Source of the DNA: Escherichia coli
Lineage (GTDB): Bacteria > Pseudomonadota > Gammaproteobacteria > Enterobacterales > Enterobacteriaceae
Assembly (NCBI RefSeq): GCF_036507355.1
Contig: NZ_AP027877.1
Reading direction: 5' to 3' (one strand)
DNA: 64,000 nucleotides
Under the pieces are notes generated by a model. That model ran no database searches and was not told the origin of the DNA. It was given only the letters and a program-made list of their open reading frames with translations. Shown piece by piece: positions 6,946 through 62,005 of this stretch. Numbering within the stretch: the first letter of the stretch is position 1; every line of letters begins with the position of its first letter. The position numbers and the translations under genes were made by a program.

Positions 6946-8034
6946 TTACACCATTGGCATTAATGAAAGCGCGTTATCGGCAGACAAGGTAGGGTTATTT
7001 AAGCTGCCGCTGGCGCGTGAAATTGCCGCGCAGGCCATCGCAAAACGGGCGCTGTCACGGAAATTGTTTCCTTCCAGAAAGCTATATACCAGGCCCGCCA
7101 TAAAACCATCGTCAGCACCAAAACTGTCTACTGTCGTATGCGCTGGTGCGGTCAGCAAAAATTGTTCTCCATCCTTTTCGCTGCAATAAACTGACTCATC
7201 GGGCAAATAAACAAACAGTTGCTGAACACCTTGCTGATGCAACGCATTCACTGCAGCATTACGGTCAGCATCGCTGGTGATCGCCTGTCCCCATAAAATT
7301 TCCAGCTCCGGTAAAGTGGGTTTCAGGGTGTGAATATGCGCCAGCCAGTGTTTGATTTTGCCCGCTTTGAATTCTGAAACGGTATCGACAAACACCGGGA
7401 TCTCATCAGCGAGGGTAAAGACCCATTCCAGCGCCTCGGCTGTCAGGTTGCAATCAGCCAGTACCACGCCCGCATGACGAAGTAAATCGCGCGACCCGTT
7501 CAGTAGTTGCGGTGTCAACTGTTCCAGCAGATGGGTATCGTTAATCGCCAGCACGGTTTGATCGTCTCGATTGGCAATTGCCAGATACGTCGATGTGCTT
7601 TGACCATGCAAACGAACGCAGCCGGAGACATTCACGCCGGCACGGCGCGTTTCTTCCAGGAGCATTTCGCCATAAAAGTCATCGCCAATCACTGAAAGCA
7701 AATGGACGTCGCGGCCTAACAGCGCCAGATTGTGGGCGATATTGCGTCCAACGCCGCCTGCCGAGCAATGAATTGTACCGGGATGAGAAGCCGATTGCGG
7801 GTAACGGATATCCGCCATCCCGCGAATATCCATATTGATTGTCCCCACCACTACGCAGTATTCCTGCTCGGTGAGAATGTAACCTTTGCCTTTAATCCGG
7901 CCTTTGCGCATTAAATCCATAATATGCGCCGCAACGCGCGAACGGCTGATTTGCAGCATGTCCGCAATTTCGTTCTGCTGAATCAGCGGGTTACGCCGTA
8001 AAATTGCAAGGATCTCCTTTTCCCGGTTATTCAT
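6946..8034 (-). CDS. yeiI: PfkB-family sugar/nucleoside kinase with N-terminal HTH domain
   Basis: 362-aa ORF; N-terminal HTH (EILAILRRNPLIQQNEIADMLQISRSRV) fused to ribokinase-like domain (GADD motif). Confidence 0.85.
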   Translation of the reverse strand: MNNREKEILAILRRNPLIQQNEIADMLQISRSRVAAHIMDLMRKGRIKGKGYILTEQEYCVVVGTINMDIRGMADIRYPQSASHPGTIHCSAGGVGRNIAHNLALLGRDVHLLSVIGDDFYGEMLLEETRRAGVNVSGCVRLHGQSTSTYLAIANRDDQTVLAINDTHLLEQLTPQLLNGSRDLLRHAGVVLADCNLTAEALEWVFTLADEIPVFVDTVSEFKAGKIKHWLAHIHTLKPTLPELEILWGQAITSDADRNAAVNALHQQGVQQLFVYLPDESVYCSEKDGEQFLLTAPAHTTVDSFGADDGFMAGLVYSFLEGNNFRDSARFAMACAAISRASGSLNNPTLSADNALSLMPMV

Positions 8035-23047: not shown

Positions 23048-23232
23048 TTGTAGGCCGGATAAGGCGTTCACGCCGCATCCGGCGACAGGAGCCAAATGCC
23101 GGATGCAACGCTGGCGCGTTTTATCCGGCCTACAATGAGCTCAACATACTGATTTGTATGGTTTTGTAGGCCGAATAAGGCGTTCAAGCCGCATCCGGCG
23201 ACAGGAACCAAATGCCGGATGCGTCTCTGGTT
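23048..23232. repeat. cluster of REP (repetitive extragenic palindromic) units / BIME
   Basis: Four units of GCCGGATAAGGCGTTCACGCCGCATCCGGC-type palindromes in alternating orientation between the convergent mglC and preA. Confidence 0.8.
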
Positions 23233-40927: not shown

Positions 40928-41056
40928 AGCATTTCCTCACGATTCTCCTTTGACGATCGCACTTTTTGCTCGTTATGATGGCGTCGCTAGCCTCAGTAAA
41001 TCCTTACTCCGGCGGTGCGCAACCCGTGCGCGTGAACCACTATCTGAATGCTCATC

Positions 41057-61374: not shown

Positions 61375-61484
61375 ATATTCATCCCTGAAATGTATTAATG
61401 AAATAAACGATATTTTACGTGCAATAAATGTTTGGCGCATTAGTTGTTTGAGCGAAAAATATCTGGAAAGCAGATCACAGTAAA

Positions 61485-61568
61485 TAAAAAAACCTGCTGG
61501 TGAGGCAGGTTCTTTTATTTACTATTTTCAGGCCTAACACCACAGCCTGTGCAACATCGTGTTCCAAC
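61485..61568 (-). ncRNA. orzO: candidate OrzO-like antitoxin sRNA of the zor/orz type I TA locus
   Basis: Minus-strand sigma70 promoter (-35 TTGCAA 61603..61598, 17-nt spacer, -10 TATAAT 61580..61575) precedes a region whose transcript would be complementary to the zorO 5' UTR (direct DNA repeat 61549..61573 vs 61715..61739), ending at a minus-strand hairpin plus U-tract (stem 61492..61510, A-run 61485..61491 on plus strand). Boundaries approximate. Confidence 0.45.
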
Positions 61569-61574
61569 GAACGA

Positions 61575-61625
61575 ATTATAACCACGGCTGGACCCCGTTG
61601 CAATTAAGATAATGAGATTTATAAT
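61575..61625. promoter_or_regulatory. back-to-back divergent promoters for zorO (+) and orzO (-) sharing one palindromic -35 hexamer
   Basis: Plus strand: TTGCAA (61598..61603), 16-nt spacer, TATAAT (61620..61625). Minus strand: the same self-complementary TTGCAA, 17-nt spacer, TATAAT (61580..61575). Predicted zorO TSS gives a ~174-nt 5' UTR. Confidence 0.45.
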
Positions 61626-61806
61626 CCAGACCGTTGGGACGTTGCGCCGGATCGGACCAATTTTAAGTCCTGGCTACCGGACGGGTGGTGCTGCAGGTGG
61701 TGCCCTGATCCGGAGTGCAACATCGTGGTCCAACATACGTAAACCAGTATCGACAGGCAGTGTAAGGGTAAGGTGCTGGTGTTGCGCTCCTTAATAAGGA
61801 GAGCGG

Positions 61807-61896
61807 ATGGACACGCTGACACAAAAGTTAACCGTGCTCATTGCTGTACTGGAGCTATTAGTAGCTCTGTTACGGTTGATTGATTTGTTGAAGTAA
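61807..61896 (+). CDS. zorO: type I toxin ZorO (29-aa hydrophobic membrane peptide)
   Basis: Read from sequence: AAGGAG RBS then ATG...MDTLTQKLTVLIAVLELLVALLRLIDLLK; matches recalled ZorO of enterohaemorrhagic E. coli; below track cutoff. Confidence 0.8.
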   Translation: MDTLTQKLTVLIAVLELLVALLRLIDLLK

Positions 61897-61919
61897 CGGG
61901 CAAATTGAAACGCATCTAA

Positions 61920-61942
61920 GGGGGAAAACCGCTTCCCCCTTT
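61920..61942 (+). terminator. rho-independent terminator of zorO
   Basis: GGGGGAA-aaccgc-TTCCCCC hairpin followed by TTT. Confidence 0.5.
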
Positions 61943-61950
61943 AATAAAGC

Positions 61951-62005
61951 TATACTCGTCATATTTCAAGTTGCATGTGCTGCGACTTGAATTATCTAGA
62001 GTATA
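61951..62005. repeat. short ERIC-like element (terminal arms only)
   Basis: TATACTCGTCATATTTCAAGTTGCATGTGCTGCG...GAATTATCTAGAGTATA matches the outer arms of the full ERIC at 25744..25869 but lacks the central core. Confidence 0.5.

Follow-up and report, generated by a model that had tools for sequence, protein, structure and literature searches.

A zorP/orzP-type toxin-antitoxin locus in Escherichia coli and the fixed internal mismatch of its antitoxin pairing site

The zor/orz type I toxin-antitoxin systems were first described in E. coli O157:H7 (PMC2887945, PMC3919570), in which the Orz antitoxins, sRNAs of ~85 nt (PMC2887945), are transcribed divergently and carry complementarity to both toxins (PMC2887945). 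Overexpression of ZorO is toxic and is rescued by OrzO, and toxicity of Z3290 has likewise been published (PMC2887945). Recognition is governed by a specificity determinant, V1, at sRNA nt +9 to +11, which reads GAA in OrzO and ACG in OrzP (Wen et al., PMC3919570), and OrzP cannot repress zorO (PMC3919570). The published pairing criterion is complementarity over at least 15 nt if continuous, or over at least 17 nt if a single internal mismatch interrupts it (PMC3919570, PMC11264685); engineered OrzO duplexes of the patterns 6(1)11 and 5(1)12 repress fully, whereas 8(1)9 does not (Wen 2014). For zorO-orzO, both RNase III dependence and a block of translation at the 'exposed after processing' (EAP) region of the toxin mRNA leader have been published (EAP/standby mechanism, PMC5397157). 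A third type, zorQ-orzQ, and genomes that carry orz only have also been described, with 99.8% of loci meeting the pairing criteria (PMC11264685). Outside the family, a likeness by description exists to tisB-istR-1 and shoB-ohsC of E. coli K-12, in which a divergent sRNA pairs through its 5' end over ~19-21 nt with a long, processed 5' UTR, at a site far upstream of the RBS, and in which the tisB target is a ribosome standby site and its duplex is cleaved by RNase III (PMC3919570, PMC5397157), although these systems differ in having unrelated sequences and toxins at other chromosomal loci. Earlier publications cover the pairing site, the V1 triplet, the fact that one mismatch is tolerated, the existence of three locus types and the orphan antitoxins (Fozo 2010; Wen 2014, 2016/17; 2024 mSystems survey), and the locus examined here is an ordinary, already described member of this known system.

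The locus lies in a 64-kb stretch of the E. coli chromosome (64,000 nt, hereafter the window), in which the zor/orz unit is single-copy and is flanked by the yehL and yehK ORFs; the same flanks were present in every homologous E. coli region compared, and the yehI/yehK-yehL interval is the position expected for the family. That it is a zor/orz type I toxin-antitoxin locus is evident from this position, from the score against the family sRNA model, from a 29-aa toxin ORF with an AAGGAG RBS and from TTGCAA/TATAAT promoters. The Rfam model OrzO-P (RF02083) matched over its full length (model positions 1-76) at 61486-61561 on the minus strand with 99.9 bits, the gathering score being 60, and was the sole OrzO-P match in the window. 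With the transcription start placed by the position of V1, this match delimits an orz gene of the OrzP type, ~85 nt long, at 61484-61568 on the minus strand, whose product is predicted to end in a Rho-independent terminator hairpin (~61485-61512, minus strand) with a U-run, preceded by an internal hairpin and, at the 5' end, by the pairing domain. The RF02083 model begins at Orz nt 8, so that the first seven transcribed nt, including part of the pairing domain and the mismatch position discussed below, are absent from it. Two further Rfam families matched above their gathering scores in the window, namely naRNA4 (nucleoid-associated ncRNA, REP-like) at 23053-23130 (plus strand, 85.8 bits) and the Peptidase-S11 cis-regulatory RNA at 40972-41052 (plus strand, 72.8 bits). 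Weak sub-threshold matches to the Thr leader, the Trp leader and isrH overlapped the Orz terminator or the spacer downstream and were rejected as terminator-like noise.

One palindromic TTGCAA (61598-61603) serves as the predicted -35 box of both back-to-back sigma-70-like promoters. On the minus strand, the orz promoter (61575-61603) joins it by a 17-nt spacer to a -10 TATAAT at 61575-61580, and on the plus strand the zor promoter (61598-61625) joins it by a 16-nt spacer to a -10 TATAAT at 61620-61625, each scoring 10/12 in the promoter scan. The same hexamers, TTGCAA/TATAAT, are listed for zor and orz in Table 3 of PMC11264685, where those of orz are at least 99% conserved. By homology and the published numbering (PMC5397157), the zor mRNA would start at 61633 and carry a 174-nt 5' UTR (61633-61806, plus strand), which places the RBS AAGGAG at +164 to +169 (61796-61801), in agreement with published zorO. 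The EAP region, a putative ribosome standby site, would correspond by homology (PMC5397157, PMC11264685) to +73 to +102 (61705-61734, plus strand), including GGAGTG at 61712-61717. The toxin ORF (61807-61896, plus strand, from the ORF list) encodes 29 aa and a stop, MDTLTQKLTVLIAVLELLVALLRLIDLLK, and is identical letter for letter to the published ZorO peptide, which was synthesised in PMC6669753; ZorP of EDL933 differs from ZorO by T3S (PMC11264685), a substitution also present in the O157-type loci compared here. Downstream of the ORF, the predicted MFE fold of the mRNA contains a terminator-like hairpin, AAGGGGGAA...TTCCCCCTT, followed by TAATAAA (61918-61948, plus strand), which a simple terminator scan missed because its T-run is short.

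The initial annotation had named the pair orzO/zorO, a name that needs to be corrected at the level of the subtype. V1 in the window is ACG, not GAA (61558-61560, minus strand), and over the stretch bounded by the orz and zor terminators the unit shares 98.1% identity with the O157:H7 P unit, as against 88.7% for O and 89.8% for Q, so that 'orzO/zorO' should read orzP/zorP type. By sequence, the window pair is thus of the orzP/zorP subtype; its longest continuous pairing is 13 nt, against the 18 nt required of the orzO/zorO subtype, and the O-type arms (TTCGTAC core) were not found in the 64-kb window. Only the toxin protein sequence matches ZorO, the regulatory region being P-type, and single-copy P-type loci generally encode the ZorO protein sequence (in the loci compared; also PMC11264685). 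An O157:H7-type strain among the compared loci carries two units, of which the yehL-proximal one, with GTGCAACATCGTGTTCCAAC in orz and GTGCAACATCGTGGTCCAAC in zor, is identical to the window in these arms, and the yehK-proximal one has GTGCAACATTTCGTACCAAC in orz and GAGCAACGTTTCGTACCAAC in zor. With +1 set at the G that follows each -10 box by seven nt, the sRNA starts were reconstructed as GUUGGAAC-ACG-AUGUUGCAC for OrzP and GUUGGUAC-GAA-AUGUUGCAC for OrzO. The reconstructed RNAs match the published pairing counts: OrzO:zorO has 18 paired nt, with one G·U among them, OrzP:zorO has 15, and the OrzP V1 mutant has the pattern 5(1)12. They also agree with a gene order in which z3289 is zorO and z3290, adjoining yehL, is zorP.

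Compared with zorP-orzP of O157:H7 EDL933 (z3290/sRNA-2), the window unit shares both 20-nt arms including an A·G mismatch, the ACG triplet, the promoters and the position on the yehL side, and differs in having a toxin with Thr3, as in ZorO, rather than the Ser3 of EDL933 ZorP. Unlike the EDL933 unit it adjoins yehK directly, because it is single-copy and has no zorO-orzO downstream. With zorO-orzO of O157:H7 (z3289/sRNA-1) it shares the divergent sRNA, whose 5' end pairs with an EAP/standby region in a leader of 174 nt, and the identical 29-aa toxin, but that system has GAA at V1 and an 18-bp continuous duplex with one G·U and no internal mismatch. The zorQ-orzQ type (PMC11264685) has the same architecture and the same 6(1)13 duplex, with a mismatch at +7 (A·A), but differs in its core (GGCATCT / GGCGACT) and in an extra G·U at +8.

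The feature that had drawn attention to the locus is a direct repeat of 19-25 nt with one internal mismatch, which the initial annotation placed at the 5' end of a divergent orz sRNA gene and in the zor 5' UTR, and from which it argued that divergent transcription makes the two RNAs complementary. Most of this stands. A repeat search returned the copies with the claimed coordinates and T/G difference, at 61549-61573 (GTGCAACATCGTGTTCCAACGAACG) and 61715-61739 (GTGCAACATCGTGGTCCAACATACG), 166 nt apart and identical at 22/25 positions (88%); they differ at repeat positions 14 (T/G), 21 and 22, and 19 of the first 20 positions are alike. The OrzO-P match and the ZorO-identical ORF bear out the placement of the two copies, and reading them from opposite strands does yield 19/20 paired nt. 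The part that falls away is the upper end of the claimed length, the complementarity in RNA being 20 nt with one mismatch. From the published V1 numbering and homology with the mapped O157:H7 (EDL933) starts, Orz +1 would lie at 61568, and repeat positions 21-25 on the orz side (61569-61573) are probably untranscribed because they are upstream of this start, between it and the -10 box at 61575-61580; the zor-side positions 21-25 (ATACG, 61735-61739, plus strand) would then be without an sRNA partner. In the O-type pair, repeat positions 21-25 do not match between the copies.

The resulting RNA duplex joins Orz nt 1-20 (5'-GUUGGAACACGAUGUUGCAC-3', 61549-61568, minus strand), the segment that would pair with the toxin mRNA, to its target in the zor 5' UTR at 61715-61734 (plus strand, +83 to +102), in a 6(1)13 pattern with 19/20 nt paired at 73-92 nt upstream of the ATG. 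As had been anticipated, the T/G difference at repeat position 14 becomes a mismatch in this duplex, Orz A7 (from T61562) lying opposite zor G96 (G61728, +96); it is a true mismatch and not a wobble pair, and V1 (+9 to +11) excludes its position.

The repeat is very probably an OrzP/zor-leader pairing site of the published type, with a mismatch that is fixed and tolerated. Read across from the homologous systems, the shared -35 TTGCAA would drive both an Orz of ~85 nt (minus strand, from 61568) and a zor mRNA (plus strand, from 61633) with its ORF for a 29-aa membrane toxin. In the full-length leader the EAP region would be occluded, the first 24 nt of the zor mRNA being complementary to it with a predicted energy of -27.8 kcal/mol (z = -3.8), and 5' processing (delta-28) would open the region and so permit translation from the putative standby site. 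By pairing with +83 to +102, the 3' part of the EAP region, Orz nt 1-20 would block ribosome preloading and translation and trigger RNase III-dependent decay of the toxin mRNA, with the variable duplex core, including V1, deciding which paralogue is recognised. The sequence anatomy, the assignment to a paralogue, the fixation of the mismatch, the covariation between paralogues and the predicted energies come from the present analysis, and the transcription starts, the mechanism of repression and the repression of the window zor by OrzP are all inferred here by homology; in the literature searched, no experiment was found in which OrzP represses or rescues zorP, the published mutagenesis being all on zorO/OrzO. 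The mismatch of the engineered OrzO 6(1)11 duplex is at the same position as that of the P pair, +7, and with 19 paired nt against a stated rule of at least 17 with one internal mismatch, the +7 mismatch of the P pair should allow repression.

The 5' end of the zor mRNA (61633-61656, GUUGGGACGUUGCGCCGGAUCGG) begins like Orz, with GUUGG...GUUGC. Its predicted pairing with the EAP region (61705-61734) has an energy of -27.8 kcal/mol for the P type, -26.8 kcal/mol for O and -24.2 kcal/mol for Q. The zor 5' end has the appearance of a cis-acting mimic of Orz because this pairing engages the conserved sequence on either side of the Orz target's variable core and passes over the core itself. The predicted pairing agrees with the published finding that the EAP region is closed in full-length mRNA, and a statement of the resemblance between the zor 5' end and Orz was not found in the literature searched.

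Across the 35 loci compared, only three types of target were found, P, O and Q, and the arms of these types differ at repeat positions 10, 11, 12, 15 and 16, at each of which a change in orz is accompanied by one in zor. The published compensatory mutagenesis of the O pair agrees with this natural covariation, which is evidence for pairing as the selected function of the repeat. Predicted energies follow the same division, with cognate duplexes at -30.8 (P), -29.6 (O) and -30.0 (Q) kcal/mol and non-cognate duplexes at -14.0 to -21.2 kcal/mol. An improvement of orthogonality was considered as a role for the mismatch and rejected, as a G to U change in the target shifts the predicted off-target energy from -21.2 to -20.7 kcal/mol for OrzO and from -18.2 to -19.7 kcal/mol for OrzQ.

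The Q type was seen independently in two loci (L007, L015) and an orphan antitoxin in E. coli K-12 MG1655 (L003), both of which are rediscoveries of published types. The K-12 locus (1430-1745) retains an intact P-type orz, both promoters and ~30 nt of the zor leader, without target or toxin ORF, and corresponds to OrzPmg, the published expressed antitoxin of MG1655 (PMC11264685). Two metagenome contigs carry mixed arrangements, one (L019, reverse strand, 6965-7590) with orzP, then zor with a Q-type target, then orzQ, and the other (L027, reverse strand, 936-1120) with orzQ, then zor with a P-type target; either recombination has built these arrays and the cognate sRNA acts from the next unit, or the assemblies are chimeric. 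Two variants of Orz itself were also observed, both altered at +7. In E. coli strain A4 from a possum (L034, ~95-305), GUUGGGGCGCCAUGUUGCAU stands opposite a Q-type target, and the duplex has G·A at +7 and two G·U pairs (predicted -30.2 kcal/mol). In two further loci (L014, L022) the O-type target is unchanged and stands opposite GUUGGUGCGAAAUAUUGCAU, which gives G·U at +7 and A·C at +14 (predicted -24.1 kcal/mol).

Orz +7 is therefore outside Watson-Crick pairing in the P type (A·G), the Q type (A·A) and the A4 variant of Q (G·A), is a G·U wobble in the O-variant, and is Watson-Crick paired (A-U) in canonical O only. That Orz nt 7 lacks a Watson-Crick partner in several specificity classes may be new, this recurrence not having been found spelled out in the literature searched. 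A possible explanation is that the discontinuity at +7 is no tolerated relic but recurs in zor/orz duplexes as a design feature under selection, whether because duplex stability is held near -30 kcal/mol for reversible repression, because RNase III cleavage is shaped to one strand or a defined site, or because Orz nt 7 is kept for the 5' hairpin of the sRNA and the target base for the standby site. Besides the recurrence itself, both mismatched bases are invariant, and four cognate duplexes have predicted energies of -29.6 to -30.8 kcal/mol against -35.1 or -37.5 kcal/mol for a repaired P duplex. In each of the three types, the fold predicted for the sRNA also has Orz nt 7 paired, and the substitution A7C destroys the P hairpin, such that pairing within the sRNA could explain the constancy of A7. 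Against this, only three to five partly related lineages are involved, for which two hits at one site would be expected about once in 8 to once in 20 cases, the canonical O pair is Watson-Crick paired at +7 and functional, and the predicted -24.1 kcal/mol of the O-variant duplex shows that the energies do not all converge on one value. In an over-expression assay no effect of an engineered +7 mismatch could be detected, a result equally compatible with neutrality, and all of the energies and folds are predictions. Selection for the discontinuity is consequently considered unlikely, a low estimate that reflects the small sample and the relatedness of the lineages. The structure of the mRNA was rejected as a reason for G96, which is unpaired in the predicted folds of the full-length as well as the delta-28 form. 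The invariance of zor G96 found no explanation in the mRNA fold or in the orthogonality tests, and 'tolerated' does not account for it. Position +7 could either be free of pairing constraint or be one at which a discontinuity is selected.

The initial annotation had suggested instead that the mismatch might mark a diverged or cross-talking antitoxin variant, and had named zorP/orzP of other strains as a comparison; that comparison goes against it, as O157:H7 has identical 20-mers, mismatch included. The reading at issue is that the antitoxin is diverged, decaying or non-cognate, either through drift of orz or through recombination with a foreign orz. The frequency of each allele was obtained by megablast of 45-nt queries centred on the variable base, with a 28-nt seed, against 5426 complete E. 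coli genomes; because the query is centred on the mismatch, any 28-nt seed includes the variable base, and the counts rest on an exact 28-nt seed, so that alleles combined with other nearby changes are missed. The native toxin-side G was present in 2803/5426 genomes and toxin-side T, A and C in none, while the native antitoxin-side T was present in 4682/5426 and the compensating antitoxin-side G in none (0/5426). The excess on the antitoxin side (4682 versus 2803) is due to orz-only genomes such as K-12. Escherichia whittamii and a further Escherichia sp. also carry the identical pair of 20-mers, with its mismatch, as do metagenome contigs from gut and environmental samples; a scan of species-representative genomes returned three Escherichia genomes only and thus gives little outgroup depth. 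Among 15 distinct P-type units, 55/469 alignment columns were variable, none of them within the two 20-mers (hypergeometric P = 0.005). A looser search returned ~60 records with some other change near the site, and ~65 records have a single change in the 30-nt target window; one of these was resolved. In E. coli EM10-18-28 (L035, 301-330), the P-type target has CCAGC for CCAAC, an A to G change at repeat position 19 that turns an A-U pair with Orz U2 into G·U and keeps the pairing, and two matches of 97.8% that were checked for target-site variants had their changes outside the duplex.

Divergence would draw some support from the occurrence of non-cognate neighbours elsewhere, namely the P-type orz beside a Q-type target in L019 and the reverse in L027, and from the combination of a ZorO toxin protein with a P-type regulatory region in the window. 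However, the ZorO protein sequence is the usual one in P-type single-copy loci, the whole unit is uniformly P-like, and OrzP is predicted to pair far better with the window target (-30.8 kcal/mol) than with the other two target types, O and Q (-17.2 and -18.1 kcal/mol). With the same pair in O157:H7 and in thousands of genomes and a repaired allele in none, a diverged or non-cognate antitoxin is very improbable, the population counts having effectively refuted it. The mismatch is instead fixed in every P-type pair, where it is ancestral and tolerated, and is not specific to this strain. Chance similarity, or a functionless leftover of a duplication behind the divergent promoters, has next to no probability, because even though the like starts of the two divergent transcripts (GUUGG...GUUGC) hint at an old inverted duplication near the promoters, chance is excluded by the occurrence of the 20-mer GTGCAACATCGTGKTCCAAC (K at position 14) at two sites only in the 64-kb window with up to 3 mismatches allowed (0.01 expected) and of a 19/20 direct repeat in 0/200 dinucleotide shuffles of the 565-nt intergenic region or a 2.5-kb region (shuffle maximum 17/20), both arms are invariant against 12% variable columns elsewhere, and the covariation of the arms across the three specificity types, together with the published compensatory mutagenesis and probing of the homologous O pair, refutes both forms of this reading.

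In standard annotation the locus is invisible, because RefSeq leaves the genes out and the toxin has no Pfam or NCBIfam model: RefSeq/PGAP records homologous to the window have no feature between yehL and yehK (61441-62005 in the window, and homologues), leaving both zor and orz unannotated, and neither Pfam nor NCBIfam has a model for the 29-aa Zor toxin. The appropriate label for this single-copy type I toxin-antitoxin locus is zorP/orzP-type rather than zorO/orzO. As regards the biology of the family, these results add little beyond the published knowledge of zor/orz, except that a natural mismatch recurs at the same sRNA position, which, if selected, could bear on the tuning of duplex strength or RNase III cleavage in short trans-acting antitoxins.
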